This document shows, piece by piece, positions 36,734 to 54,500 of a stretch of 64,000 nucleotides of DNA. How positions within the stretch are numbered: the stretch's first letter is position 1; each line of letters begins with the position of its first letter. Below the pieces are notes generated by a model. The model did not search any database. It was not told the origin of the DNA and saw only the letters and a list, made by a program, of their open reading frames with translations. This DNA is from Candidatus Palauibacter scopulicola (GTDB taxonomy: Bacteria; Gemmatimonadota; Gemmatimonadetes; Palauibacterales; Palauibacteraceae): the NCBI RefSeq assembly GCF_947581915.1, contig NZ_CANPWG010000065.1, forward strand, positions 161,181 through 225,180, read 5' to 3'. The position numbers and the translations under genes were made by a program.

Positions 36734-37101
36734 GGGGGCGACACGGCTTCGACGCGTGAACCGGAAGCCGCGGAAGCGTGCCGAGGTGCCCGGGGCCTCG
36801 TTAAACACCGGGAAATCTTCAGGTGCCAACAACGGTTTGGCTCTGGCTGCGTAAATCTGCGTAGCCCGTCCCCGAGAGATCCGGGCCCGAGGACCTCCCG
36901 GCGGACGTCGATGAATCGGGCTGGTCGCCCCGGCGCGCCGTGAGCCGCGGGTGACGAGAGCACGGCGAGAGCCGCGTACACGGCTGGTTTCGCAAGGGGT
37001 TGTTCGTGAACCCTCGCGGGATGAGACCTGATCACGGACTACGCACGTAGATGCCGTGGCGGATGGGCTCGCGGACGCGGGTTCGATTCCCGCCGCCTCC
37101 A
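36734..37101 (+). ncRNA. ssrA: tmRNA (transfer-messenger RNA, SsrA)
   Basis: 5' GGGGGCGACACGGCUUCGACG..., 3' T-arm GCGGGUUCGAUUCCCGC, with the acceptor 3' strand CGCCUCC pairing to the 5' GGGGGCG and discriminator A. There is an internal tag ORF ...GCC AAC AAC GGT TTG GCT CTG GCT GCG TAA (ANNGLALAA*) at 36825-36854. Length 368 nt; CCA is not encoded. Confidence 0.85.
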
Positions 37102-37132
37102 CTATTGCGATCGGTGCAGTGCTCCGCCCGGG

Positions 37133-41045: not shown

Positions 41046-41141
41046 GGGAGCGGATGGTGACTGGTGTCGCCTGCGGTCTTCAAAACCGTTACGGGGCGTT
41101 CGCGCGTCCCGGGTGGGTTCGATTCCCACACGTTCCCGCCA
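41046..41141 (+). tRNA. selC: tRNA-Sec (selenocysteine tRNA, anticodon UCA)
   Basis: Manual fold: anticodon arm GCGGU/CUUCAAA/ACCGU with anticodon UCA (41080-41082); 6-bp D stem GGUGAC/GUCGCC with a 4-nt loop; a long extra arm (~41090-41112); T arm GUGGG-UUCGAUU-CCCAC; acceptor GGGAGCGG/ACGUUCCC, discriminator G and encoded CCA. The 6-bp D stem, long variable arm and G73-CCA are selC hallmarks. selB lies 5.3 kb upstream. Confidence 0.8.
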
Positions 41142-41292
41142 TTTTCGTCCTCGCGGCCCTTCTGACCGGCCAGGGCCTGGACCCCTCGCCGCTGTGCGGG
41201 CAGGATCCTCCGCCTCCCGCGGCCGCACCCGATTCCGCCGCGGCGGAATCGAGCCCCGCCGCCGACACGACGGGGGTCCGGCGCCCGCCCAT

Positions 41293-41650
41293 CTCCCCGC
41301 TTGGCGCCTTCGGCCGCTCCCTGATCCTTCCGGGCTGGGGACAACTGGAGGTCGGGCGCCCGGCCCGCGGCGCCTTCTACTTCGCCGCGGAGTCCGTCTT
41401 CCTGTTCATGGTCTTCAAGTCGGACGCGCGCCTCTCGGCGGCGAAGGAGGAGTTGCCGCCGAACGAAGAGCGGATATCCAACCGCACGGGGCAGCGGGAG
41501 AACTGGATCGTCCTCGCCGGATTCTTCGCCTTTCTGAGCGGTCTTGACGCCTGGGTGTCCACGCAGTTCTGGGACTTCGAGCCCTCGATCGGCCCGCCCG
41601 CCGATGGGTCTGTCGGGATCGCCCTCGGCTTCAAGGTCGATTTCCCCTAG
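41293..41650 (+). CDS. hypothetical membrane/secreted protein with LPGWGQ motif (DUF5683-like); start uncertain
   Basis: The C-terminal body (SLILPGWGQ...FYFAAESVFLFMVFKSD...) looks genuine. The ORF-track ATG at 41054 lies entirely on top of the tRNA-Sec gene, so the start is placed at TTG 41293; it could be elsewhere. Confidence 0.35.
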
Positions 41651-42929: not shown

Positions 42930-43864
42930 GCCGTGCGCCCGCGCGCCGCGTCCTGCGGCTGCTCCTCATCGTGCCCCTCACCGCGTGCGGCGGCGGTTTC
43001 GAGCGCGGGGCCCCGATGCCGGATGCGGAAGAGATCGCGCGGCGCGCGCGCGCCGACTCGGGCACGGAGCAGCCGATGCACGTCGTCTTCCGGTGGGAAT
43101 ACGCCGGCGAGAGCGGCAACTTCCGCGGCGACGGCGCGGCCCGGGTGAATCCTCCCGACCGCTTTCGTCTCGACCTCTTCTCGACGGGGGAGGGAAGCCT
43201 CCAGGCCACGCTCGTCGACGGGGTTCTGGCCACGTCGGGCGACATCGAGGGCGTCGAACTCCCCCCGACCGTCTTCCTGTACGCCATGGCGGGCGTGTTT
43301 CGCCCCGGCGACATGCCTCCCGCCGCCGGCTTCGAGATCCCCGGTTCCCGCGTCCTCGAGTTCGCGGTCGAAGAAGGCGCGACGCGGAGCTATTATCTTG
43401 AGGAGGGACGGCTCACCCGCCTCGAGGAGCGGCGAGCCGACCGCCGCGAACGCTGGATCGAACTCGAGTGGGGAAGCGACCGCAGCTGGCCCAGGGAAGC
43501 CCGATATCGGGACATCGTGGACTCGAGCGGGGTCCTTTGGGAGCTGGTGAGCGCGACGGCTCAATCACAGCCATACGACGAGGAACACTATGTCCTGCCG
43601 ATTCCGCGCCGGAGCGATGGCCGCGATCGCGATGCTCGCCGTGCTGGCCGGGTGCTACGGTTTCTCCGGCGGCGGCGGGCTGCCCAGCCACATGCGCACC
43701 GTGTGGGTCGCCCCGATCGAGAACGAGAGCACTCAGTTCGGCATCGCGGAGTCGCTGATGGACGAACTCCTCACGGCGGCGCGCCAGCGGCTGGGGCTGC
43801 GGCTCGCGTCCGAGGAGGAAGCCGACGCGGTCATCACGGCGCAGATCCGGCGCTACGCCGATGA
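42926..43864 (+). CDS. lipoprotein (LolB/DUF4292-like, tentative); C-terminal ~80 aa probably not genuine
   Basis: ATG 42926 overlaps the thioesterase stop (ATGA), followed by the lipobox LTACGGG. After ~230 aa the translation becomes Arg-rich junk and overlaps the next gene by ~250 nt (see findings). Confidence 0.45.
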   Translation: MSRAPARRVLRLLLIVPLTACGGGFERGAPMPDAEEIARRARADSGTEQPMHVVFRWEYAGESGNFRGDGAARVNPPDRFRLDLFSTGEGSLQATLVDGVLATSGDIEGVELPPTVFLYAMAGVFRPGDMPPAAGFEIPGSRVLEFAVEEGATRSYYLEEGRLTRLEERRADRRERWIELEWGSDRSWPREARYRDIVDSSGVLWELVSATAQSQPYDEEHYVLPIPRRSDGRDRDARRAGRVLRFLRRRRAAQPHAHRVGRPDREREHSVRHRGVADGRTPHGGAPAAGAAARVRGGSRRGHHGADPALRR

Positions 43865-44102
43865 GGCGGTCAACTTCGACGCGGTCGGGGGCGTGGGCGC
43901 GGACGTCTTCCAGCGTCGCGTCACCGTCAGCGTTTCCGTGGAGATCCTCGATGTGGCCGAGAACCTCATCATCTGGGGCAATCAGAGCCTGACCGGGACC
44001 GGCGAGTATGAACCCGGGGCGGAAACCGAAGACCAGGCGTTGATCGTCGCGCTGGAGAACCTCGTCCAGCAGATCGTCGACGGAGCGCAATCGCAGTGGT
44101 AG
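43617..44102 (+). CDS. lipoprotein, LptE-like (tentative)
   Basis: MAAIAMLAVLAGCYGFSGG lipobox, then RTVWVAPIENESTQFGIAESLMDELLTAARQR, resembling LptE/RlpB-family lipoproteins; ~160 aa. Confidence 0.5.
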   Translation: MAAIAMLAVLAGCYGFSGGGGLPSHMRTVWVAPIENESTQFGIAESLMDELLTAARQRLGLRLASEEEADAVITAQIRRYADEAVNFDAVGGVGADVFQRRVTVSVSVEILDVAENLIIWGNQSLTGTGEYEPGAETEDQALIVALENLVQQIVDGAQSQW

Positions 44103-44265
44103 ACTGACCGGCGTCGATCGCCGGGACGGGATCGGGCGGGAGCCTCTCGCGCCCGCGCGACCGGTTCGCCATTCTGTGGTCGACTTGTTTACACGGGCCG
44201 ATAACCTTCACTCAACGTCCGGGCGCCGACATGCCGCCAGCCGCTCGACCCGCCACCCCGAATCC

Positions 44266-44745
44266 GTGACGTACGCCGTCGGCCTCGTCGCCATCCTGGC
44301 GGCCGTATGGCTCATCTGGTCGGGGCACTTCGAAAACCCGGTCATTCTAAGTCTGGGGGCGGTGTCCATCGGGCTCGTCGTCTTCATCTCGCTCCGCATG
44401 AGGATTGTCGATGACGAGGGGGCACCGATCCAGCTCCCGCTGGGGCTGGTCCGCTATCTGCCCTGGCTGGTGATCGAGATCGTGAAGGCGAATGTCGCCG
44501 TAGCCCTGCGCATCGTGAGCCCCGGGCTGCCGATCCAGCCCCGCGTGATACGGGTGCGGGCCGGGCAGCGCACGGACATCGGTCGGGTCATCTACGCGAA
44601 CTCGATCACGCTCACGCCCGGCACCGTGACGGTCGACACGGAAGGCGATCACATCACGGTCCACGCCCTCACCCGCGAGGCGGCGGAAGGCGTGCTCTCG
44701 GGCGAGATGGACCGGCGGGTGGCGCGGGTCGAGGGGCGCGGATGA
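44266..44745 (+). CDS. mrpE: Mrp-type cation/proton antiporter subunit E
   Basis: MnhE-like, ~159 aa (LVAILAAVWLIWSG... ANSITLTPGTVTVD). Start at GTG 44266. Confidence 0.8.
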   Translation: MTYAVGLVAILAAVWLIWSGHFENPVILSLGAVSIGLVVFISLRMRIVDDEGAPIQLPLGLVRYLPWLVIEIVKANVAVALRIVSPGLPIQPRVIRVRAGQRTDIGRVIYANSITLTPGTVTVDTEGDHITVHALTREAAEGVLSGEMDRRVARVEGRG

Positions 44746-45023
44746 CCCTCGCCGCCGTGGTCGCCGCGATCATCGTCACGATGGGACTCGCTCTCGTCCG
44801 GGCCGCGAAGGGTCCCACGGTCTTCGACCGCATCCTCGCGCTGAACATGTTCGGGACGAAGACCGTGCTGCTGATCGCGGTCATCGGATTCGTGACGGGC
44901 CGGCCGGATTTTCTCGACCTCGGACTCGTCTACGCCCTCATCAACTTCATCGGCGTCATCGCGGTGCTCAGATTCTCGAAGTACGGCAATTTCGCGGACC
45001 CGGACCGGGAGAAGGCGACGTGA
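44742..45023 (+). CDS. mrpF: Mrp-type antiporter subunit F
   Basis: 93-aa three-TM protein (FDRILALNMFGTKTVLLIAV), MnhF-like; ATGA coupling. Confidence 0.8.
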   Translation: MTLAAVVAAIIVTMGLALVRAAKGPTVFDRILALNMFGTKTVLLIAVIGFVTGRPDFLDLGLVYALINFIGVIAVLRFSKYGNFADPDREKAT

Positions 45024-45343
45024 TGCCGGAGTCCGCGTTCGAGATCGTGAGCGCCGTGCTCATGCTGACGGGCGCCCTCTTCGCCGTCATCGGCGGGATC
45101 GGGGTCGTGCGCCTGCCCGACTTCTTCTGCCGCATCCACGGGGCCGGGATCACGGACACGCTCGGAGCGGGGCTCATCCTCACCGGGCTCATGTTCCTGT
45201 CGCCCGGGTGGATCGTGACCGCCAAGCTGGTTTCGATTCTCGTCTTCCTCTGGATCACGAGCCCGACATCCACGCACGCACTGGCCAATGCCGCGCTGGA
45301 GACCGGACTCCGACCGTACGTCGACGAGGCGGAGGAGGCGTGA
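45020..45343 (+). CDS. mrpG: Mrp-type antiporter subunit G
   Basis: MnhG signature GGIGVVRLPDFFCRIHGAGITDTLG. Confidence 0.8.
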   Translation: MMPESAFEIVSAVLMLTGALFAVIGGIGVVRLPDFFCRIHGAGITDTLGAGLILTGLMFLSPGWIVTAKLVSILVFLWITSPTSTHALANAALETGLRPYVDEAEEA

Positions 45344-45921
45344 TCGATCCCGTAGCCCTGGAGATCCAGGTTGCGACGGCGCTGCTCCTCACGCTGCTCT
45401 GCGCGACGGCGGTCGCGGTGCTGCGGATGCGCGGGCTGTTCGCGGCCGTGATGTTGATGGGCATTTTCAGCTTCCTCGGCGCCGGCTGGATGCTCCTGCT
45501 GGATGCTCCCGACGTCGCCCTCACCGAGGCCGCCGTCGGCGCCGGGATCTCGACGATTCTCGCGCTCGCCACTCTGGCCCTCACCACGCGCAAGGCCAAG
45601 CGGCCGGTGCGACCCGCGGTGTTGCCGCTGGCCGTGGTGACGATCACGGGCGTCGCGCTCGTGTACGGCACGCTGGACATGCCGCGGTTCGGCGACCCCG
45701 AGGCCCCGGCCAGCAACTATCCGCTGCCCTCGTACGTCGAGCGGACGGACCACGACATCCACATCCCGAACGTCGTCACCGCCGTGCTTGGCAGCTACCG
45801 CGGCTACGACACGCTCGGAGAAACGGTCGTCATCTTCACCGCCGGCATCGCGGTGCTCGTTCTCCTCCGCGGAAGCCGCAAACGCCGGCCCGCGGCGGAC
45901 GGCGGGGAGGACGACGCGTGA
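45340..45921 (+). CDS. MrpA C-terminal-domain-like membrane protein (MnhB-like/DUF4040; MbhD-equivalent)
   Basis: Polytopic ~193-aa protein in the position that the MrpA C-terminal (MrpB-like) domain occupies in Mbh/Mbx-type clusters. GTGA coupling to mrpG. Confidence 0.6.
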   Translation: MIDPVALEIQVATALLLTLLCATAVAVLRMRGLFAAVMLMGIFSFLGAGWMLLLDAPDVALTEAAVGAGISTILALATLALTTRKAKRPVRPAVLPLAVVTITGVALVYGTLDMPRFGDPEAPASNYPLPSYVERTDHDIHIPNVVTAVLGSYRGYDTLGETVVIFTAGIAVLVLLRGSRKRRPAADGGEDDA

Positions 45922-46340
45922 CCGATCACACCATCCTGCGCGTGGTCAGCAAGTTCCTGCTGCCGTATGTCCTCCTCTTCGCCCTGTACGTCCAGTTCCA
46001 CGGCGACTACGGACCGGGCGGAGGGTTCCAGGCCGGCGTCATCTTCGCGGCCGGGTTCGTGCTCTACGGGCTGATCTACGGACTCACGGCCGTGCGCCGC
46101 GTGGCGCCGGAGCGAGTGATCGAAATCCTGATCGCGGTCGGCGTGCTCATCTTCGCCGGCACGGGCGTTCTTACGATGCTTCGGGGCGGCAACTTCCTCG
46201 AGTACGGCGTCCTGACGCCGGCGTATCCGTCGTCGGGACAGCACTACGGGATCCTCGTCGTCGAACTCGGCGTCGGAGTGACGGTCGCCGCGGTGATCAT
46301 CGCGATCTATTCGACCTTCGCGGGACGCGGGCGCCAGTGA
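45918..46340 (+). CDS. mrpB: Mrp-type antiporter subunit B
   Basis: MnhB-like (YVQFHGDYGPGGGFQAGVIFAAGFVLYGL); 140 aa. Confidence 0.75.
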   Translation: MTDHTILRVVSKFLLPYVLLFALYVQFHGDYGPGGGFQAGVIFAAGFVLYGLIYGLTAVRRVAPERVIEILIAVGVLIFAGTGVLTMLRGGNFLEYGVLTPAYPSSGQHYGILVVELGVGVTVAAVIIAIYSTFAGRGRQ

Positions 46341-46708
46341 TCGAGTCCATCTTCGACTCCGCGCTCGGACTGTACAACTACTGGGTCGTCATCTTCCTGA
46401 TGATGACGGGGTTCTACATCGTCATCTCGCGCGGGAACCTCATCAAGAAGGTCATCGGACTCAACATCTTCCAGGTCTCGGTCTTCCTCTTCTACATCAC
46501 CGTCGGAAAGGTCAGCGGAGGCACGGCACCGATCACGGCCGAGGGGTTCGAGGTCTACAGCAACCCGCTCCCCAGCGTCCTCATCCTGACCGCGATCGTC
46601 GTGGGCGTCGCGACGACCTCCGTCGCCCTCTCGCTCGTCGTCCGCATCCGTGAAGCGTACGAGACGATCGAGGAGGACGAGATCTACGCGCAGGACGACC
46701 CCCGATGA
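46337..46708 (+). CDS. mrpC: Mrp-type antiporter subunit C (NuoK-like)
   Basis: NuoK/MnhC-like three-TM protein (VIGLNIFQVSVFLFYITVG); 123 aa. Confidence 0.8.
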   Translation: MIESIFDSALGLYNYWVVIFLMMTGFYIVISRGNLIKKVIGLNIFQVSVFLFYITVGKVSGGTAPITAEGFEVYSNPLPSVLILTAIVVGVATTSVALSLVVRIREAYETIEEDEIYAQDDPR

Positions 46709-48204
46709 ACTGGCTGACCTCGGCGGTCGGAGATCAACTGCCGGTCCTGCAGGTCGTCATTCCGCTCCTGGCGGCGCCGCTCTGCATCATCCTGCGGCGG
46801 CGCTCCCTGGTGCTGCCCTTCGCGATCATCGTGTGCTGGGCCGCGTTCGGCGTCTCCGTCGCGTTGCTCCAGGAGGTGCTCGAGGTCGGCGCCATCACCT
46901 ACGAACTGGGGGGCTGGGCCGCGCCGTGGGGCATCGAGTATCGCGTCGACGCCCTCGGCGCCTTCGTGCTTCTCTTCGTGTCGGGAATCGGCGCGCTCGT
47001 GCTGACCTATGCGCCGCGCAGTCTGATCGATGAGGTTCCCGCCGGCCGGCAATACCTCTTCTGCACGCTCTACCTGCTCTCCCTCACCGGCCTGCTCGGA
47101 ATCGCGATTACCGGCGACCTCTTCAACGTCTTCGTCTTCCTCGAGATTGCGGCGCTCTCCTCGTACGCCCTGATCGCGCTCGGAGGGCGCAGGCAGGCGC
47201 TGCCCGCGGCGTTCCAGTACCTGGTCATGGGTACGATCGGGGCCACGTTCATCCTCATCGGCATCGGTCTCATGTACCAGATGACCGGGACGCTGAACAT
47301 GGTCGACATGGCCGACCGGCTGCCCGCCGTCGAGGGCATGCGGACGGCGCTCGTCGCCTTCGGCTTCCTCACCGTGGGCATTGCCCTGAAGATGGCGCTC
47401 TTCCCGCTCCACGTCTGGCTGCCCAACGCCTACGCGTACGCGCCGTCCGTCGTCAGCGCCTTTATCGCGGCGACCTCGACCAAGGTCTCCGTCTACATCC
47501 TGCTGCGCTTCATGTTCAGCGTGTTCGGGCTCGAATTCTCGTTCGAGCACCTCGGGCTGGGGCGCGCGCTCATGCCGCTCGCCCTGGCCGGGATCTTCGT
47601 GGCCTCCACGGTCGCGATCTTTCAGCGCAACATTAAGCGGATGCTCGCCTATTCGTCGGTGGCCCAGGTCGGATACATGGTCCTGGGAATCAGCTTCGCG
47701 ACGGCGACCGGGCTCACCGGGGGCATCGTCCACCTGTTCAACCACGCGCTCATCAAGGGCGGGCTCTTCATGGCCATGGGGTGCATCATGCTGCGGCTGC
47801 ACTCCGTCGACCTCGATGACATGGCCGGGATCGGACGCGCGATGCCGTGGACGATGGCCGCGTGGGCGCTCGGTGGCCTCGGCCTCATCGGGGTCCCGGC
47901 GACGGCGGGCTTCATCAGCAAGTGGTACCTCATCGAGGCGGCGTTGGAGCAGGGCAGCGTCCTCGTCGCGGTCCTCCTGCTCCTCAGTTCGCTGCTGGCC
48001 CTCGTCTACGTGTGGCGCGTGGTCGAGACCGCCTTCTTCCACGAACCGAGCGAGCGGGCGCGCGAGGCGCGCGAGGCGCCGCTTTCGATGCTGGTCCCGA
48101 CGTGGGTGCTGCTCGGCGCGACGGTCTTTTTCGGCATCTACACGGCGTACTCGGCGGGCGTGGCGGAGCAGGCGGCGGAGGCCGTGCTCGGCGGGCTCCG
48201 GTGA
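46705..48204 (+). CDS. mrpD: Mrp-type antiporter subunit D (NuoN/M-like)
   Basis: Proton-pumping NuoL/M/N family motifs (LFNVFVFLEIAALSSYALI, HLFNHALIKGGLFMAMG); 499 aa. Confidence 0.85.
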   Translation: MNWLTSAVGDQLPVLQVVIPLLAAPLCIILRRRSLVLPFAIIVCWAAFGVSVALLQEVLEVGAITYELGGWAAPWGIEYRVDALGAFVLLFVSGIGALVLTYAPRSLIDEVPAGRQYLFCTLYLLSLTGLLGIAITGDLFNVFVFLEIAALSSYALIALGGRRQALPAAFQYLVMGTIGATFILIGIGLMYQMTGTLNMVDMADRLPAVEGMRTALVAFGFLTVGIALKMALFPLHVWLPNAYAYAPSVVSAFIAATSTKVSVYILLRFMFSVFGLEFSFEHLGLGRALMPLALAGIFVASTVAIFQRNIKRMLAYSSVAQVGYMVLGISFATATGLTGGIVHLFNHALIKGGLFMAMGCIMLRLHSVDLDDMAGIGRAMPWTMAAWALGGLGLIGVPATAGFISKWYLIEAALEQGSVLVAVLLLLSSLLALVYVWRVVETAFFHEPSERAREAREAPLSMLVPTWVLLGATVFFGIYTAYSAGVAEQAAEAVLGGLR

Positions 48205-49667
48205 GCGGCATGGTGCCGCTGTACTGGGCGCTGGCGATCCCGCTCGCCGGCGCCGTGCTCATCGCCCTGTTCGGCCGCTGGCCCAACATCCGGGAAGCCG
48301 TCACGCTCGCCACCGGCGCGGCGCTCTTCTGGTTCGTCGCGTCGCTCCTGCCGCACGTCCTTGCCGGCGCGACCCCCGGGGTGCTCATGGTGCGGCTGCT
48401 TCCCGGCGGCCTCTCCCTCGTGCTCCGGCTGGAGCCCCTCGGGATGCTCTTCGCCCTGGTCGCGGCCGGGCTCTGGATCGTCACTTCGCTGTACTCGATC
48501 GGCTACATGCGGGGACACGCGGAGGTGCACCAGACGCGGTTCTACGTCTGTTTCGCGGTCTCCATTTGCGCCGCCATGGGCGTGGCGCTCGCGGGCAACC
48601 TGCTCACGCTGTTCCTCTTCTATGAGGTGCTGACGCTCTCGACCTACCCGCTCGTCTCGCACCACGGGACGCCGAAGGCGATGAAGGGCGCCCGCACGTA
48701 TCTGGGCATCCTCGTCACCACATCCGTCGCGTTTCTGCTCCTCGCGGTCGCGTGGACCTGGGTGCTCGCCGGCACGCTCGACTTCCGCGTCGGGGGGATC
48801 CTGGCCGGCCAGGCGAGCGACGGCGTGCTCCTCGTCCTGCTCGCGCTCTTCGTGTTCGGGACGGGGAAGGCCGCCCTCATGCCGGTCCATCGCTGGCTGC
48901 CCGCCGCCATGGTCGCGCCGACGCCCGTGAGCGCGCTCCTGCACGCGGTCGCGGTCGTGAAGGCCGGCGTGTTCACGATCATGAAGGTCGTCATCTACAT
49001 CTTCGGTCTCGACCTGCTGAGCGCGACCGGGATCAGCGTGTGGCTCATGTACGCCGCCGGCTTCACCGTCATCGCGGGCTCGCTCGTGGCCATGGCGCAG
49101 GACAATCTCAAGCGGCGCCTCGCATATTCCACGGTGAGCCAGCTCTCCTACATCGTCCTCGGGGCGGCGCTCGCGAACGCCTGGGGCGTGGTCGGCGGCA
49201 GCATGCACATCCTCATGCACGCCTTCGGCAAGATCACCCTCTTCTTCTGCGCCGGCGCGATCTACGTCGCGGCGCACAAGACGGAGATCAGCGACATGCG
49301 CGGGCTGGGCCGCGCGATGCCGATCACGATGGCGGCCTTCCTCATCGGGGCCCTCAGCGTCATCGGCGTCCCGCCCCTCGGCGGGAGCTGGAGCAAGTGG
49401 TACCTGGCACTCGGGGCGCTCGACGCCGGGCAGATCCTCTTCGTCGCCGTCCTCATGGTCAGTTCGCTGCTGAACATCGCGTACCTCGTCCCGATCCCCA
49501 TCCGGGCGTTCTTCTCGAAACCCGCCGACGGGTCGGACCCGCCGCGCTTCAAGGAGGCGCCGGCGTTCTGCGTCGCGGCGCTCTCGTTCACGGCGGTCGG
49601 CTGCATCGTCCTCTTTTTCCTCGCGGACGATGTGTACCGCCTGCTCGTCCCCCTGGGCGGAGGGTAA
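48201..49667 (+). CDS. second NuoL/M/N-family antiporter-like subunit (MrpA N-terminal / MrpD paralog)
   Basis: FLFYEVLTLSTYPLV, LHAVAVVKAGVFTIMKV, ILMHAFGKITLFFCAG; ~488 aa. GTGA overlap with mrpD. Confidence 0.8.
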   Translation: MSGMVPLYWALAIPLAGAVLIALFGRWPNIREAVTLATGAALFWFVASLLPHVLAGATPGVLMVRLLPGGLSLVLRLEPLGMLFALVAAGLWIVTSLYSIGYMRGHAEVHQTRFYVCFAVSICAAMGVALAGNLLTLFLFYEVLTLSTYPLVSHHGTPKAMKGARTYLGILVTTSVAFLLLAVAWTWVLAGTLDFRVGGILAGQASDGVLLVLLALFVFGTGKAALMPVHRWLPAAMVAPTPVSALLHAVAVVKAGVFTIMKVVIYIFGLDLLSATGISVWLMYAAGFTVIAGSLVAMAQDNLKRRLAYSTVSQLSYIVLGAALANAWGVVGGSMHILMHAFGKITLFFCAGAIYVAAHKTEISDMRGLGRAMPITMAAFLIGALSVIGVPPLGGSWSKWYLALGALDAGQILFVAVLMVSSLLNIAYLVPIPIRAFFSKPADGSDPPRFKEAPAFCVAALSFTAVGCIVLFFLADDVYRLLVPLGGG

Positions 49668-49670
49668 GCC

Positions 49671-49982
49671 ATGGCCGCTGACACGCACGACACGGGCGGA
49701 CGGACGAAGGACCGGGGCCGGCACTACTTCGACGATCCGAAGCGCTGGAAGCGCCTGATCGCGATCCTGGTCGTGGTGTGCGGCGTGCTGTTCGCGCTCG
49801 ACTTCGTGAATTTCCTGCAGCAGCGAATGGGGTGGTGGGAGTTGCGCCACCCGGAGCGCGACTGGGAGGGCCTGCCGCCCTTCTACGCGGTCTACGGCTT
49901 CCTCGCGTACACGGCGATCGTCTACACCGCCAAGCTGCTCCGGAAGGGCGTAATGCGGGACGAGGACTACTATGATCGGTAG
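49671..49982 (+). CDS. small two-TM membrane protein, hypothetical
   Basis: 103-aa ORF between two antiporter-subunit genes, with a good hydrophobic core (LIAILVVVCGVLFALDFVNFL...FYAVYGFLAYTAIVYTAKLL). Confidence 0.45.
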   Translation: MAADTHDTGGRTKDRGRHYFDDPKRWKRLIAILVVVCGVLFALDFVNFLQQRMGWWELRHPERDWEGLPPFYAVYGFLAYTAIVYTAKLLRKGVMRDEDYYDR

Positions 49983-51714
49983 CCTTCCTCCCGCCGCGAT
50001 CATGATCCTCGGGGCGTTGCTCGTCCCCCTCCTCCGGGGCCGTGCGCGCACGGGCTGGGTCCTCCTCCTGCCCGTCGCGAGCCTCGCCGCCCTTCTCGCG
50101 GTGGGCGAAGGAGAGTTCGGGCAGATCTCGATCTTCTCGTACGAGCTGACGCTCGTCCGGATCGACGGGCTGAGCCGGATCTTCGGGTGGCTCTTCCACA
50201 TCGCGGCCTTCATCGGGCTCATCTTCGCGCGGCGCGGAGGGAGCGCGCTGGAAGATGCCGCGGCGCTGGTCTACGCGGGCGCCGCCATCGGAGCCGTGCA
50301 GGCCGGCGACCTGATCACGCTCTTCGTCTTCTGGGAGCTTCTGGCCCTGAGTTCCGTCTTTCTGGTGTGGGCGCGCGGCACGGAACGTTCCTACCGGGCG
50401 GGGATCCGCTACCTGATCGTGCAGGTCGGCTCCGGGGTCGTCCTCCTGGCCGGCATCATCGCCCACGCGCGGGCCACGGGCTCCGTCGCCTTCGACCACC
50501 TGGGGACGGGGACCCTGGCGACGGGGACGCTGGGGACGAACCTCATCCTCCTCGGAATCGGCATCAAGGCGGCCTTCCCGCTGCTGCACAACTGGCTCAC
50601 GGACGCCTATCCCGAGGCCACCTACAGCGGCGCCGTCTTCCTGAGTGCGTTCACGACCAAGGTCGCCGTTTACGCCCTGGCGCGGGGATACCAGGGCGAG
50701 GAGCTGCTGATCTGGGTCGGCGTTGTCATGACGATGTTCCCGATCTTCTACGCCGTGATCGAGAACGATCTGCGCCGGGTGCTCGGATACAGCATGATCA
50801 ACCAGATCGGCTTCATGGTCTGCGGCGTCGGAATCGGCACCGAGATGGCCGTGAACGGGGCGGTTGCGCACGCCTTCAACGACGTGCTCTTCAAGGGGCT
50901 CCTCTTCATGTCGACGGGGGCGCTGCTCTACCGCGCGGGCACGACGAAGTGCAGCGAGCTGGGCGGACTCTACAAGAGCATGCCGAAGACGGCGGGTTTG
51001 TGCGTCGTCGGCGCCGCCTCCATCTCCGCCTTCCCGCTGTTCAGCGGGTTCGTGAGCAAGTCGATGGTGATGGCGGCGGCGCTGGAGATGAACCTCGACA
51101 TCGTGTGGCTCTTCCTCCTGTTCGCCTCGGCCGGCGTGCTGCACCACGCGGGGATCAAGATCCCGTTCTACGGCTTCTTCGGGCCCGATTCCGGGATCCG
51201 CACGAAGGAGGCGCCGACGAGTATGCTCATCGCGATGGGGATGGCGGCCTTCCTGTGCATCCTCAACGGGTCGTGGCCAACGCTGTTCCTGTATCCGAAC
51301 CTGCCGTACGAGGTGACGTACGTGCCGTTCACCCCCGCGCACGTGATCAGCCAGCTGCAGCTGCTCTTCTTCGCCGTGCTCGCCTTCGTGTGGCTGCGGC
51401 TCACCGACCGGGAACCGCACGAGCTGCCGTCGACGAACCTCGACGCGGACTGGTTCTATCGCCGATTCGGCAGGGGGCTGGCGCTCGCGGCGGGGGGCGT
51501 CTCGTCGCGGCTGCGGGAAGCCGTCGCGGCGCGCACCGTGGTCGCGGCCGGCGACGTGATCGGATCGGCCAGGCGCTACATGGGCCCGAGCGGCGTGTTG
51601 GGGCGTACCTGGCCCACCGGAGTCTCCGTCATATGGGTTGCGATCCTGCTCCTGGTGTTCCTGCTCCTCTACTACGCGACTACGCCCGTCACGAACGCCC
51701 TCCCGCCGCCATGA
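49972..51714 (+). CDS. third NuoL/M/N-family antiporter-like subunit
   Basis: LFVFWELLALSSVFLV, HAFNDVLFKGLLFMSTGALL; 580 aa. Confidence 0.8.
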   Translation: MIGSLPPAAIMILGALLVPLLRGRARTGWVLLLPVASLAALLAVGEGEFGQISIFSYELTLVRIDGLSRIFGWLFHIAAFIGLIFARRGGSALEDAAALVYAGAAIGAVQAGDLITLFVFWELLALSSVFLVWARGTERSYRAGIRYLIVQVGSGVVLLAGIIAHARATGSVAFDHLGTGTLATGTLGTNLILLGIGIKAAFPLLHNWLTDAYPEATYSGAVFLSAFTTKVAVYALARGYQGEELLIWVGVVMTMFPIFYAVIENDLRRVLGYSMINQIGFMVCGVGIGTEMAVNGAVAHAFNDVLFKGLLFMSTGALLYRAGTTKCSELGGLYKSMPKTAGLCVVGAASISAFPLFSGFVSKSMVMAAALEMNLDIVWLFLLFASAGVLHHAGIKIPFYGFFGPDSGIRTKEAPTSMLIAMGMAAFLCILNGSWPTLFLYPNLPYEVTYVPFTPAHVISQLQLLFFAVLAFVWLRLTDREPHELPSTNLDADWFYRRFGRGLALAAGGVSSRLREAVAARTVVAAGDVIGSARRYMGPSGVLGRTWPTGVSVIWVAILLLVFLLLYYATTPVTNALPPP

Positions 51715-52151
51715 CGGAGTCCGGCGCGGCGCGGACCGACGGGGCTCGGGATGCGGGCGCGCGGGCCCTGATCGAGTCCATCCTCGCCGACTCGGAGGCG
51801 ATCGTCGCGCTCGGCGTCACGCTCGAAGAACTGGGCGACGACACCGCCGTCCTCCGGATGACCATGCGTCCCGACCTTACCCGAGACGGCACGATGTACC
51901 ACGGCGGTCCGGTCGCCTCGCTGATCGACATCGCCGGGGACATGGTCGTCGCCGTGCGGGCCGGAGGCGGCGTCCCGACGATTTCGCTGCGGGTCGACTA
52001 CCTGCGCCCCTGCACCGGCCCGTACCTGCTGGCCACGGCCCGTTTGCGGCGTCACGGCCGTACGATCTCGGTGTCGGACGTCGACGTGCACGACGATCAG
52101 GGGCGCCTCTGCGCGGTCGGACGGGGGACCTACTCGTCGCTGGCGGGCTGA
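51711..52151 (+). CDS. PaaI-family hotdog thioesterase
   Basis: MYHGGPVASLIDIAGDMVV...ISLRVDYLRP, the PaaI/4HBT-II pattern; ATGA coupling to the upstream gene. Confidence 0.8.
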   Translation: MTESGAARTDGARDAGARALIESILADSEAIVALGVTLEELGDDTAVLRMTMRPDLTRDGTMYHGGPVASLIDIAGDMVVAVRAGGGVPTISLRVDYLRPCTGPYLLATARLRRHGRTISVSDVDVHDDQGRLCAVGRGTYSSLAG

Positions 52152-52155
52152 TGCG

Positions 52156-53166
52156 GTGAGGGCGGTCCTCTACGACGGGCACGGCGACGCCGACGAACTC
52201 TACCTGGGCGAGGTCCCGGACCCCGAACCCGCTCCCGGCGAAGCCCTGGTCCGGATCCGCGCCTGCGGGCTCAACGGCTTCGACCCGATGATGCTCGGCG
52301 GCACGACGGGGCTGCGGGTCCCGCTCCCCATGACGCCGTGCGGCGACGCGGCGGGAGAGATCGCGGGCTTCGGGGCCGGGACGGACGCGGCCGGACGGCG
52401 GGTCGGGGACCGCGTTCTGATCGACCCGTTGATCGAAGGCCGCGGCATGCTGGGCGAGAAGGCTCCGGGCGCGGCCGCCGAGTACCTTGCCGTCCCTCTC
52501 GGCAACCTGCTGCCGATCCCCGAAGGCGTCTCGTTCGAGCAGGCCGCAGCCCTGCCCGTCGCGTACGGGACCGCCCTGCGCATGATCGAGGACCGCGCCC
52601 GGGTGCAGGCGGGCGAGACCGTGCTGATCCTGGGCGCGACCGGCGGCGTGGGCTGTGGCTGCGTCCAGCTCTGCAAGCGAATCGGGGCGCGGATCATCGC
52701 CACCGGCGGCTCCGGACGGAAACTGGAACGGCTCCGCGCGCTGGGTGCGGACCACGTGCTGCCCTCCGACTCCGCCGAACTCGTGAGGCGGGTGCGGGCG
52801 ATCGCGGGCCGGCCCCGCTACCACGATCCCGACGCCGGCGGCGTGGACGTCGTGATCAACTACATCGGCGGGGCCTCGTGGGCCGCCAGCCTGAGGATGC
52901 TGCGCTTTCAGGGCCGCATGGTCACCTGCGGGGCGACCGCCGGCTACGACCCGCGAACGGACATCCGCTACATCTGGAGCTTCGAGCAGTCGATCGTCGG
53001 ATCGGACGGGTGGAGCCGCGAGGGGCTGGCGCGGCTGCTCGACATGGTGGCCGGGGGCGAACTCGACCCGGTGATCCACGCCGTCAGACCGGTCGGCGAG
53101 GTCCGCACCGCGATGCGCGAACTGATGGAGCGCGCCGTATTCGGCAAATCGATCCTGACTCCGTGA
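52156..53166 (+). CDS. zinc-type alcohol dehydrogenase / quinone oxidoreductase (MDR superfamily)
   Basis: MDR/GroES-like N-terminus plus a Rossmann fold (VLILGATGGVGCGCVQLCKRIGARIIAT). Confidence 0.85.
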   Translation: MRAVLYDGHGDADELYLGEVPDPEPAPGEALVRIRACGLNGFDPMMLGGTTGLRVPLPMTPCGDAAGEIAGFGAGTDAAGRRVGDRVLIDPLIEGRGMLGEKAPGAAAEYLAVPLGNLLPIPEGVSFEQAAALPVAYGTALRMIEDRARVQAGETVLILGATGGVGCGCVQLCKRIGARIIATGGSGRKLERLRALGADHVLPSDSAELVRRVRAIAGRPRYHDPDAGGVDVVINYIGGASWAASLRMLRFQGRMVTCGATAGYDPRTDIRYIWSFEQSIVGSDGWSREGLARLLDMVAGGELDPVIHAVRPVGEVRTAMRELMERAVFGKSILTP

Positions 53167-54500
53167 ACTACCCGATCGCCCGCAAGATCCCGCGGGCGGT
53201 CCTGGACGCCGAAGCCGACCGGCTGGCGGCGCTCGCCGACGCTCCTTTGCACCGGAAGCTCGGCGGCTACGCCCGCCTGGCCGGGCCGGGGTTCATGGGC
53301 GCGGCGCTCACGCTCGGCGCCGGTACGCTCACCTCCTCGATGCTGTCGGGCGCCACGTTCGGGTACCGCACGCTGTGGCTGATCTGGCTGAGCGCGGGGC
53401 TGGGCCTGTTCATGATGGCCGCGATGGCCCGTTTCACCTGCAGGGGCGGCTTCCGCGTGATCCCGGTACAGAACCGGCGCCACTCCTGGGTCATCGGGTC
53501 GCTGATGACCGGACTCGTCGGCACGGCTGCGGTCGCCGTGATCTTCAACTTCGGCCAGGTCGCCCTCGGCACCCATCTCATCGAGTCGCTGGCACCGTTC
53601 GCCGGCTTCACATTCCCCGCCGAGTACAACTGGCTCATGTACTGTGGGGTCACGAGCGCGCTCATCCTCAGCTACGGGCGTCGGGGAGGCCGGGGGACGC
53701 GGCTTGTCGAGGCGGTCATGAAGAGCGGCATCGCCGTCATGATCCTCGCTTTCGGAGCCGTCCTGCTGCTCGTGGGCGTCGACTGGGGCGCGGCGGCGCG
53801 CGGCTTCTTCGTGCCGTGGTTGCCTGGCGGCGGGGAGGGCCTGGATCTCTTCATCGCGTCGTCCGCCGCCGCCGTCGGCGTCATGGACTGGGTCTTCTTC
53901 CACTACGCGGGCCTCGGCCGCGGCTGGGGGCGGAAGCACGAATCGCTGGCCCGCTTCGACCTGATCGCCGGGCTCTTCCTCCCGTTCGTGGTCATCAACT
54001 TCCTGGTGATCGGAGTGTTCGCGGCGACGCTGTTTCCGCAGGGGATCACGCCGGACTCCGCGCCCGCACTGGCGGCCGCGCTCATGCCGCTCCTCGGGCC
54101 CACATGGTCGCAGATCCTCTTCTACGCGGGCTTCCTGGCCGTGCCGATCACGACGACGGTCGGGATGAGTCTGGCCGGGGCCATGGCCGTCCACGAGGCC
54201 TTCGGCTGGGAGCCCGACACGTCGTCGTGGCGCTGGAAGGTCAGCGCCCTGCTGCCGCAGATCGCCTTCCTTGCCGCATGGAACGCCCGTCCGGTCTGGC
54301 TCGTGATCGCGATCGCGGCCTTTCTCTCGCTGGCGAACAACGTCGTCGGATGGTCGATGTACCTGCTGCTGAACGACCGCGAACTCCTCGGCGCGGACCG
54401 CTGCCGGTCGTACCTGTGGAACCTCGGAATCCTGCTCCAGGTCACCCTCCTGAACGCGATCGCCGTCACGTACGTCTTCAACCGGCTGGGGTGGTGGTGA
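53163..54500 (+). CDS. mntH: NRAMP-family divalent metal cation transporter (MntH-like)
   Basis: GPGFMGAALTLGAGTLTSS (NRAMP consensus motif region), polytopic, ~445 aa from GTG 53163 (GTGA overlap). Confidence 0.8.
   Translation: MNYPIARKIPRAVLDAEADRLAALADAPLHRKLGGYARLAGPGFMGAALTLGAGTLTSSMLSGATFGYRTLWLIWLSAGLGLFMMAAMARFTCRGGFRVIPVQNRRHSWVIGSLMTGLVGTAAVAVIFNFGQVALGTHLIESLAPFAGFTFPAEYNWLMYCGVTSALILSYGRRGGRGTRLVEAVMKSGIAVMILAFGAVLLLVGVDWGAAARGFFVPWLPGGGEGLDLFIASSAAAVGVMDWVFFHYAGLGRGWGRKHESLARFDLIAGLFLPFVVINFLVIGVFAATLFPQGITPDSAPALAAALMPLLGPTWSQILFYAGFLAVPITTTVGMSLAGAMAVHEAFGWEPDTSSWRWKVSALLPQIAFLAAWNARPVWLVIAIAAFLSLANNVVGWSMYLLLNDRELLGADRCRSYLWNLGILLQVTLLNAIAVTYVFNRLGWW

Follow-up and report, generated by a model that had tools for sequence, protein, structure and literature searches.

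We report that positions 44266-51714 (+ strand) of a 64-kb stretch of DNA from Candidatus Palauibacter scopulicola (hereafter the window; G+C ~70%) carry ten intact, translationally coupled genes, in the order E-F-G-B'-B-C-D1-D2-X-D3, that likely encode a self-contained Mrp (CPA3) complex, a secondary antiporter of protons and a monovalent cation, most probably Na+. Homologues of MrpB, MrpC, MrpD, MrpE, MrpF and MrpG are all found in this one operon of overlapping genes, as befits a member of the Mrp/CPA3 family. Because no NuoH/MbhM-like or peripheral subunit is linked to the cluster, a stand-alone, electrogenic antiporter with three proton channels is the best-supported reading of the locus.

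A ten-gene Mrp operon without a single-polypeptide MrpA

We identified the subunits with Pfam and NCBIfam model scans, using the model cut-offs. The cluster carries both a cation module (E, F, G and B) and a connecting module, which consists of C and of B', the equivalent of MrpA transmembrane helices (TM) 17-21. The operon opens with a GTG at 44266 that starts an MrpE-like subunit of 159 amino acids (aa) (44266-44745; Pfam MNHE, 113 bits); NCBIfam subunit E models also matched this protein, every score falling below its cut-off. MrpF-like (93 aa; 44742-45023; Pfam MrpF_PhaF, 65 bits) and MrpG-like (107 aa; 45020-45343; Pfam PhaG_MnhG_YufB, 88 bits; TIGR01300, 79 bits against a cut-off of 63) subunits follow, and then B', a free-standing 193-aa protein resembling the C-terminal part of MrpA (45340-45921; Pfam MbhD and MbhE (DUF4040); NF009159, 207 bits against a cut-off of 141). 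Downstream of B' are MrpB-like (140 aa; 45918-46340; Pfam MnhB, 100 bits; NF009162, 179 bits against a cut-off of 120) and MrpC/NuoK-like (123 aa; 46337-46708; Pfam Oxidored_q2; NF005624, 130 bits against a cut-off of 95) subunits. The remainder of the operon encodes three large antiporter-like proteins, D1 (499 aa; 46705-48204; Pfam Proton_antipo_M, 220 bits), D2 (488 aa; 48201-49667; Proton_antipo_M, 191 bits, plus Proton_antipo_N) and D3 (580 aa; 49972-51714; Proton_antipo_M, 158 bits), and, between D2 and D3, a two-helix membrane protein of 103 aa, X (49671-49982), that matched no Pfam or NCBIfam family. D3 scored 695 bits with the equivalog model NF009310 (cut-off 564), and D1 and D2 scored below the cut-offs of their best NCBIfam models. 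All ten genes lie on the + strand, and neighbours share a 4-nt overlap (ATGA/GTGA) except at two junctions: D2 and X are separated by a 3-nt gap, and X and D3 overlap by 11 nt.

The same models placed none of D1, D2 and D3 above the MrpA cut-off, detected no C-terminal MrpB-like domain in any of the three, and found no polypeptide in the cluster with a NuoL-like N-terminal domain and an MrpB-like C-terminal domain in one chain. Elsewhere in the 64-kb window there was no further Mrp- or Nuo-like gene. A scan of 43500-53500 yielded no promoter-like site and two terminator-like hits, both within genes and fewer than in shuffles. These results agree with a first-pass annotation of the window, made from the sequence alone, in gene content and coordinates, in the presence of three antiporter-like subunits and of a free-standing MrpA-C-terminal-like protein, and in assigning the genes to an Mrp-type cluster whose E-F-G-A'-B-C-D order is that of mbhA-H and mbsA-H and of the Pyrococcus furiosus mrpEFGBB'CD genes (PMC8415708). 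The outcome that this annotation had named as contrary to its view, an ordinary MrpA with its own C-terminal domain, did not emerge from the models.

In the Swartz/Ito classification, as restated in PMC8415708 and also used in PMC5703873, Group 3 Mrp systems lack mrpA, carry one or several mrpD genes and depart from the canonical gene order. The window cluster, with three Proton_antipo_M genes, no MrpA and a non-canonical order, falls in this group. The operon is thus less unusual than the first-pass annotation had supposed, since Group 3 Mrp is already recognised and routinely annotated and NCBI subunit models exist for it.

The operon is constant across phyla and its neighbours are not

We examined the distribution of this operon through an alignment scan for D3 with one genome per species, which gave at least 569 confirmed D3 relatives. 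The best 80 loci were annotated using the window proteins and a hidden Markov model (HMM) of X. These loci come from Gemmatimonadota, Alpha-, Beta- and Gammaproteobacteria, Myxococcota, Acidobacteriota, Planctomycetota, Latescibacterota, Nitrospiraceae, Desulfopila and Opitutales, and D3 identity across the 80 loci listed ranged from 54 to 96%, the highest value being to D3 of Candidatus Palauibacter irciniicola. Likewise, the proteins nearest to X and D3 carry Ca. Palauibacter or Gemmatimonadota names. The same ten-gene order was found in relatives from at least 8 phyla: it was complete in 61 D3-selected loci, those with enough upstream DNA, with B' and B fused in some of them. X lay between D2 and D3 at every D3-selected locus with DNA upstream of D3 (77/77; E-values 1e-14 to 1e-55), and in most of these its reading frame extends a few bases into D3, as in the window.

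Five more loci, including one in a metagenome-assembled genome (MAG) of Planctomycetota, were found via distant X homologues, and these had the identical order among unrelated neighbours. We clustered all flanking reading frames of the resulting 66 complete-cluster loci (61 selected through D3 and 5 reached through X) and found no family that recurs beside more than 10 of the 66. The top flanking families mostly reflect synteny among Gemmatimonadota, relatives of the window organism, and one looks like a generic ABC-type transporter. The constant order, the unrelated flanks and the lack of a recurring neighbour across these 66 loci indicate that the ten genes are a self-contained unit. D2-X-D3 is a fixed part of a widely distributed operon type and not an oddity of one genome. 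The first-pass annotation had described two extra paralogs with an inserted small protein; they are indeed there, but at the 77 loci they belong to the operon and are not an addition specific to this genome.

Variation was seen at a few loci. One metagenomic variant of the cluster, represented twice, has an extra 55-aa gene between D2 and X (L002, 9829-9996; L003, 7789-7956), a D1 of 535 aa and a D3 of 633 aa, MbhD separate from an MbhE+MnhB fusion, and a Na_Ca_ex gene after D3. At one locus in Latescibacterota (L050) and one in Gemmatimonadota (L052), weak antiporter-like genes (~130 bits to D1) stand on both sides of the Mrp cluster; these may be the nuoL/M/N genes of an adjoining complex I operon.

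Features of MrpA are divided over D2, D3 and B'

To classify the large subunits we used HMM and phmmer score rankings, signature residues and Foldseek ranking, and residue conservation was counted in ~65-84 relatives. Against PDB sequences, D1 scored highest with MbsH (224 bits), MbhH (210 bits) and MrpD (208 bits), with MrpA at 110 bits, and by these scores D1 is of the MrpD/MbhH/MbsH type. D2 scored best with NuoL and NdhF (138 bits), and D3 with MbsH' (115 bits), the second, lateral-helix-bearing antiporter-like subunit of MBS. All three proteins keep the set of Glu-TM5, Lys-TM7, Lys-TM8 and Lys-TM12 (98-100% conserved), residues that form the proton pathway in Mrp and complex I (PMC7419157). 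The set comprises E147, K229, K260 and K406 in D1 (each 100% conserved), E142, K223, K254 and K399 in D2, and E122, K199, K230 and K363 in D3.

D2 additionally conserves H248, six residues before K254, as well as H336 and K344. A histidine in TM8 marks MrpA/NuoL-type subunits (PMC7419157), and in D2 the spacings through K254 (81, 25 and 6 residues), like the 8-residue step from H336 to K344, are the same as for E167/K248/H273/K279/H369/K377 in Anoxybacillus flavithermus MrpA; the TM12 lysine, K399, sits 8 residues closer than K432 of MrpA. D2 thus has the MrpA-N/NuoL residue signature and is without a lateral helix. The lateral helix is found in D3, where an AlphaFold2 (AF2) model (pTM 0.70) has a 14-helix core followed by TM15 (455-477), a long broken helix (492-543) and TM16 (550-569). 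In Foldseek this model ranked MrpA chains on top, then NdhF, ND5 and NuoL, all in full-length alignments. We infer that D3, which bears the lateral helix and is nearest to MbsH' and MrpA, constitutes with B' a split counterpart of MrpA. The properties of MrpA are divided over three proteins, with the core signature on D2, the lateral helix and TM16 on D3, and TM17-21 on B'. Since D3 and B' together are a split equivalent of MrpA and D2 carries the MrpA/NuoL signature, the complex is not simply one that lacks MrpA.

X belongs to a large unannotated family of small membrane proteins

The N-terminus of X is basic. Its first helix is hydrophobic and carries the conserved Cys37 and Asp44, His60 and Glu66 lie in a loop, the second helix opens with an invariant Gly76-Phe77, and the tail has the form R-x-E-D-Y-Y-D. 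Besides G76 and F77, R91 and Y101 are invariant, and D21, C37, D44, H60 and E66 are nearly so. A profile search of 1.84 billion representative proteins returned 1,492 clusters at E-value ≤1e-3, 479 of them at ≤1e-10, and the 150 best of the 1,492 were all short (68-197 aa). X is therefore a large family that lacks annotation, and annotation pipelines label its members hypothetical. We propose that it is a small subunit accompanying D2 and D3.

The best match of X among PDB sequences, the CorA TM hairpin, was not significant (E-value 0.17). In hhalign comparisons with the other nine subunit families probabilities were at most 2.2%, so that X is not detectably a piece of the NuoL/MrpA C-terminus or of another subunit. 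Palauibacter X proteins have an insertion of ~10 residues (FLQ...RMGWWEL) in the loop between the helices that is absent from most family members.

D2-X-D3 also occurs in a complex I of rhizobia

A tblastn search of plasmids with D3 gave matches on 99 rhizobial megaplasmids. On Ensifer canadensis pT173d the gene order is nuoJ, nuoK, a 487-aa 'antiporter subunit D family protein', an 84-aa hypothetical protein, a 586-aa 'Na+/H+ antiporter subunit D', nuoM, nuoN and nuoA-G, and the middle three are homologues of D2 (444 bits), X (E-value 1.4e-15, ending RREDYYD) and D3 (482 bits). Sinorhizobium meliloti SM11 has the same D2-X-D3 arrangement within its nuo operon. In the 'green complex I', as portrayed in PMC9040806 and PMC7415380, two MrpD-like subunits stand in for NuoL; Complex_I_3 of Ca. 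Manganitrophaceae uses a related MrpD-like pair (PMC9040806, PMC7415380), and the C-terminal amphipathic helix of 'MrpD2' has been noted (PMC9040806). Judged by homology, what replaces NuoL as the rhizobial 'MrpD pair' is this very D2-X-D3 cassette, X included. In the green complex I of Rhizobium, Sinorhizobium and Ensifer megaplasmids, the homologous cassette, in the same order, sits between nuoK and nuoM of a full nuo operon encoding a redox-driven pump, whereas in the window it follows mrpC-D1, precedes a thioesterase gene and has no redox subunits beside it; the nuo context was seen only on rhizobial plasmids.

As the cassette takes the place of NuoL in rhizobial nuo operons, D2-X-D3 would lie at the membrane arm's distal end. 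The two settings also differ in the lateral-helix region, which is ~19-25 residues longer in the green complex I. From the DxDWxYR motif to the last helix of D3, the length is 59-62 residues in most Mrp-type D3 proteins (59 of the 73 that we measured), 66 in the window D3 and 85 in Ensifer. A longer strap is found where more subunits are spanned, as in MBH, MBS, complex I and four-pump complex I (PMC7684303, PMC9040806), and the difference between ~60 residues in the Mrp type and ~85 in rhizobia is in line with a strap that lengthens with the number of subunits it crosses.

In a gammaproteobacterial MAG (L077, 8191-11683), D2-X-D3 stands alone, with no other Mrp or Nuo gene within ~8 kb upstream or 10 kb downstream; its flanks encode a TRAP transporter, a universal stress protein, a K+-channel-like protein and a mechanosensitive channel. 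The replacement of NuoL, the lone D2-X-D3 locus and the strap lengths together suggest that D2, X and D3 make up a single distal sub-assembly able to join different cores.

Proposed mechanism and alternative functions

The connecting protein B' aligns with residues ~605-800 of MrpA and with MbhD, MbhE, MbsD and MbsE. Its E63 (LTEA motif) and D157/E161 (DTLGE motif) are 98-100% conserved in relatives and, from motif and spacing, the Glu of APDVALTEA and the Asp/Glu of DTLGE are taken to be the counterparts of E706, D792 and E796 in the Na+ path of 6Z16 (PMC7419157). By analogy with the mechanism of solved Mrp complexes (PMC7419157), and in view of the habitat, protons would enter down the proton-motive force via D1, D2 and D3. 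As has been suggested for solved Mrp structures, the resulting charge changes would travel along the central polar axis, and they would drive the cation out by way of the F/G/B'/C region. With a third proton channel, the H+/cation ratio should exceed that of a two-channel Mrp, which would help a marine, sponge-associated bacterium to exclude Na+. The lateral helix of D3 would strap neighbouring subunits together, and D2-X-D3 may form a distal sub-assembly with X as its dedicated structural subunit.

Several observations weigh against this scheme or parts of it. MrpF does not keep the Asp with which the proposed Na+ path starts on the cytoplasmic side (D35 in chain F of 6Z16): Asn35 takes its place, facing Asp in all five solved relatives aligned (6u8y_B, 6cfw_B, 6z16_F, 7qru_F and 7d3u_F), and N35 is conserved in 98% of 65 relatives of this operon type. 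Both histidines of the Anoxybacillus MrpC Na+ site are absent, V47 and F50 of the window MrpC aligning with H37c and H40c. The best solved relative of this MrpC is MbsG (76 bits), and its Q46, 100% conserved, faces a Glu in MbsG and an Asp in MbhG. Given the MrpF Asn35 and the missing MrpC histidines, the transported cation and its route may differ from those of solved Mrp. The AF2 models are weak, with pLDDT below 50 at the C-terminus of D3 and a low-confidence two-helix hairpin (pLDDT 60) for X. The length of the D3 lateral helix is compatible with D2 lying either between D1 and D3 or distal to D3; X is placed by analogy, and the stoichiometry is purely inferential. In the literature searched we found no assay of any member of this exact operon type.

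We put forward, tentatively and as quite possible at best, that D2-X-D3 is a portable 'double pump' cassette in which an obligatory, so far unnamed subunit X (invariant GF...R...EDYY; conserved Asp44, His60, Glu66) holds D2 and D3 together, and that it is plugged onto an Mrp core, giving three channels, a higher H+/cation ratio and an MrpF Asn entry, and onto complex I in place of NuoL. If this is true, the window exemplifies a major Mrp branch, so far unstudied, whose stoichiometry, and possibly also cation path, would be its own.

The substitutions in MrpF and MrpC (Asn35 for the Asp of five solved relatives; Gln46 and no His37/His40) also favour the view that the complex is a stand-alone CPA3 transporter of K+ or Ca2+ against H+, or serves mainly in pH homeostasis or proton uptake, and there are precedents in the Ca2+/H+ antiport of Thermomicrobium roseum Mrp and the link of Pha1 to K+ (PMC5703873). 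We regard this as unlikely, though worth keeping in mind. The acidic residues of the Na+ path in B' and the Glu-TM5 of D1 are conserved, and MBH and MBS are likewise without the MrpC histidines yet are considered Na+ translocators (PMC7684303). Moreover, judged informally by record titles, many source genomes are marine or saline, and the enrichment of 'MrpBCDEFG' in the saline SG8-23 order of Gemmatimonadota (PMC9426454) fits Na+ extrusion.

The first-pass annotation had left a choice between a stand-alone antiporter and the membrane arm of a larger complex, here an enzyme resembling complex I, MBH or MBS with its NuoH-like anchor and peripheral subunits encoded elsewhere. The gene order copies that of mbh and mbs (PMC8415708), D1 and D3 are closest to MbsH and MbsH', D2-X-D3 is used in the rhizobial complex I variant, and MrpD-like pairs have been recruited to other respiratory complexes (PMC9040806). 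Nevertheless, neither a NuoH/MbhM-type nor a NuoB/C/D/I-like subunit is present in the cluster or in the 64-kb window, and none stands recurrently beside the 66 complete clusters. To our knowledge, every redox-coupled relative has NuoH/MbhM-type and NuoB/D-type subunits in the same operon. The cluster, in addition, retains the complete E/F/G/B cation module of stand-alone Mrp, and in rhizobia the cassette is not unlinked but lies within a complete nuo operon. Since no NuoH/MbhM-type subunit is linked, we consider a redox arm very improbable; the observation that hydrogenase and Nuo peripheral genes are missing from the locus was correct, and of the two alternatives the stand-alone antiporter stands. 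Finally, that the cluster is a fragmentary duplicate of a canonical mrpABCDEFG operon, as the lack of a single-polypeptide MrpA and the sub-threshold NCBIfam scores of D1 and D2 might suggest, is ruled out by ten intact, coupled reading frames, by the identity of D3 over the 80 listed loci, by functional residues conserved at 98-100% and by an identical architecture in dozens of unrelated genomes.

Relation to known Mrp systems and respiratory complexes

The membrane arms of complex I and of membrane-bound hydrogenases are considered to descend from Mrp antiporters. The only solved structures we know of are those of two-channel (Group 1/2) Mrp and of the archaeal MBH and MBS. With the Group 1/2 complexes of A. 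flavithermus (6Z16), Bacillus pseudofirmus (7QRU) and Dietzia (7D3U), the stand-alone antiporter proposed here shares all seven subunit families, the Glu-TM5/Lys-TM7/Lys-TM8/Lys-TM12 sets, the MrpA-C acidic residues and the lateral helix. Unlike them, it has a split MrpA (TM1-16 and the lateral helix in D3, TM17-21 in B', the TM8 His signature on D2), one extra proton-channel subunit, X, an MrpF Asn, no MrpC histidines and another gene order.

Toward the archaeal systems the likeness lies in the first seven genes, which have the order and domain content of the stand-alone P. furiosus mrpEFGBB'CD and the order of mbhA-H/mbsA-H (PMC8415708). Among solved structures, F, C, B', D1 and D3 are closest to the MBS subunits B, G, D/E, H and H', respectively. 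P. furiosus Mrp and MBH each have one antiporter-like subunit and MBS has two, compared with three and X in the window cluster; MBH and MBS add redox subunits of the MbhM/J/K/L/N type, of which the window cluster has none. The P. furiosus genes affect pH and Na+ physiology (PMC8415708), and a cyanobacterial Group 3 Mrp gives Na+/H+ antiport in Escherichia coli (PMC5703873).

Within Group 3, Aphanothece halophytica mrpCD1D2EFGAB also has more than one MrpD-type gene, and its small, separately encoded 'MrpA' consists of the C-terminal domain only (PMC5703873); compared by description, it differs in gene order and in having two D genes rather than three, and X is not reported for it. Closer clusters have been named 'MrpEFGBCD1D2D3' in a 2026 genome paper on Verruconatronum alginivorum (PMC13274419) and 'MrpEFGBBCDD' in a 2014 paper on the Solemya velum symbiont (PMC4287430). 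They share the subunit families and the E-F-G-B-B-C-D... order with the window cluster, the former also has three D genes, and their annotated role is Na+/H+ antiport. Both papers list genes, and they give no account of X, of an MrpA split over D2 and D3 or of the Asp-to-Asn change in MrpF. The literature searched contained no biochemical or structural data on this Group 3 subtype. Nor did it describe the universal presence of X, the division of MrpA over D2, D3 and B', the family-wide MrpF Asn or the identity of the rhizobial MrpD pair with D2-X-D3, which we regard as modest additions and not as a new kind of system.

Marine and saline bacteria very commonly carry this operon type, which offers a natural division of MrpA features over three proteins, together with a small conserved subunit. 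The shared D2-X-D3 links this antiporter directly to the 'green' complex I of nitrogen-fixing rhizobia, which has four pumps. For the window itself, the gain is mainly a correct annotation: the ion-homeostasis operon of this sponge-associated member of Gemmatimonadota is intact and of an ordinary kind.

Neighbouring genes and other features of the window

On the 5' side of the cluster are LptE, lipoprotein and LpxH-like genes, and on its 3' side are genes for a 4HBT thioesterase, a zinc-type MDR dehydrogenase, an NRAMP transporter and an AMP-binding enzyme; the first three of these had been named correctly (as PaaI thioesterase, MDR dehydrogenase and NRAMP) in the first-pass annotation. The 4HBT/PaaI-type thioesterase gene (51711-52151, +; Pfam 4HBT) begins with an ATG that overlaps the stop codon of D3: the junction reads CCATGACG, with the thioesterase ATG at 51711 and the D3 TGA at 51712-51714. 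The MDR dehydrogenase gene begins 4 nt after the thioesterase gene, and the pair spans 51711-53166 (+). Both products are soluble, and in the Palauibacter lineage the two genes are probably co-transcribed with the antiporter. In other phyla they are not linked to the cluster, which puts them outside the conserved unit.

Further upstream, a complete tmRNA gene lies at 36734-37104 (+; Rfam, 147 bits), with the tag peptide ANNGLALAA predicted by ARAGORN and a GreA-like reading frame just downstream. A selenocysteine tRNA gene with anticodon TCA lies at 41046-41141 (+; Rfam tRNA-Sec, 80 bits), which implies selenoprotein synthesis in the source Gemmatimonadota genome. The nominal start of the reading frame at 41054-41650 overlaps this tRNA gene, and its true start must therefore be later.

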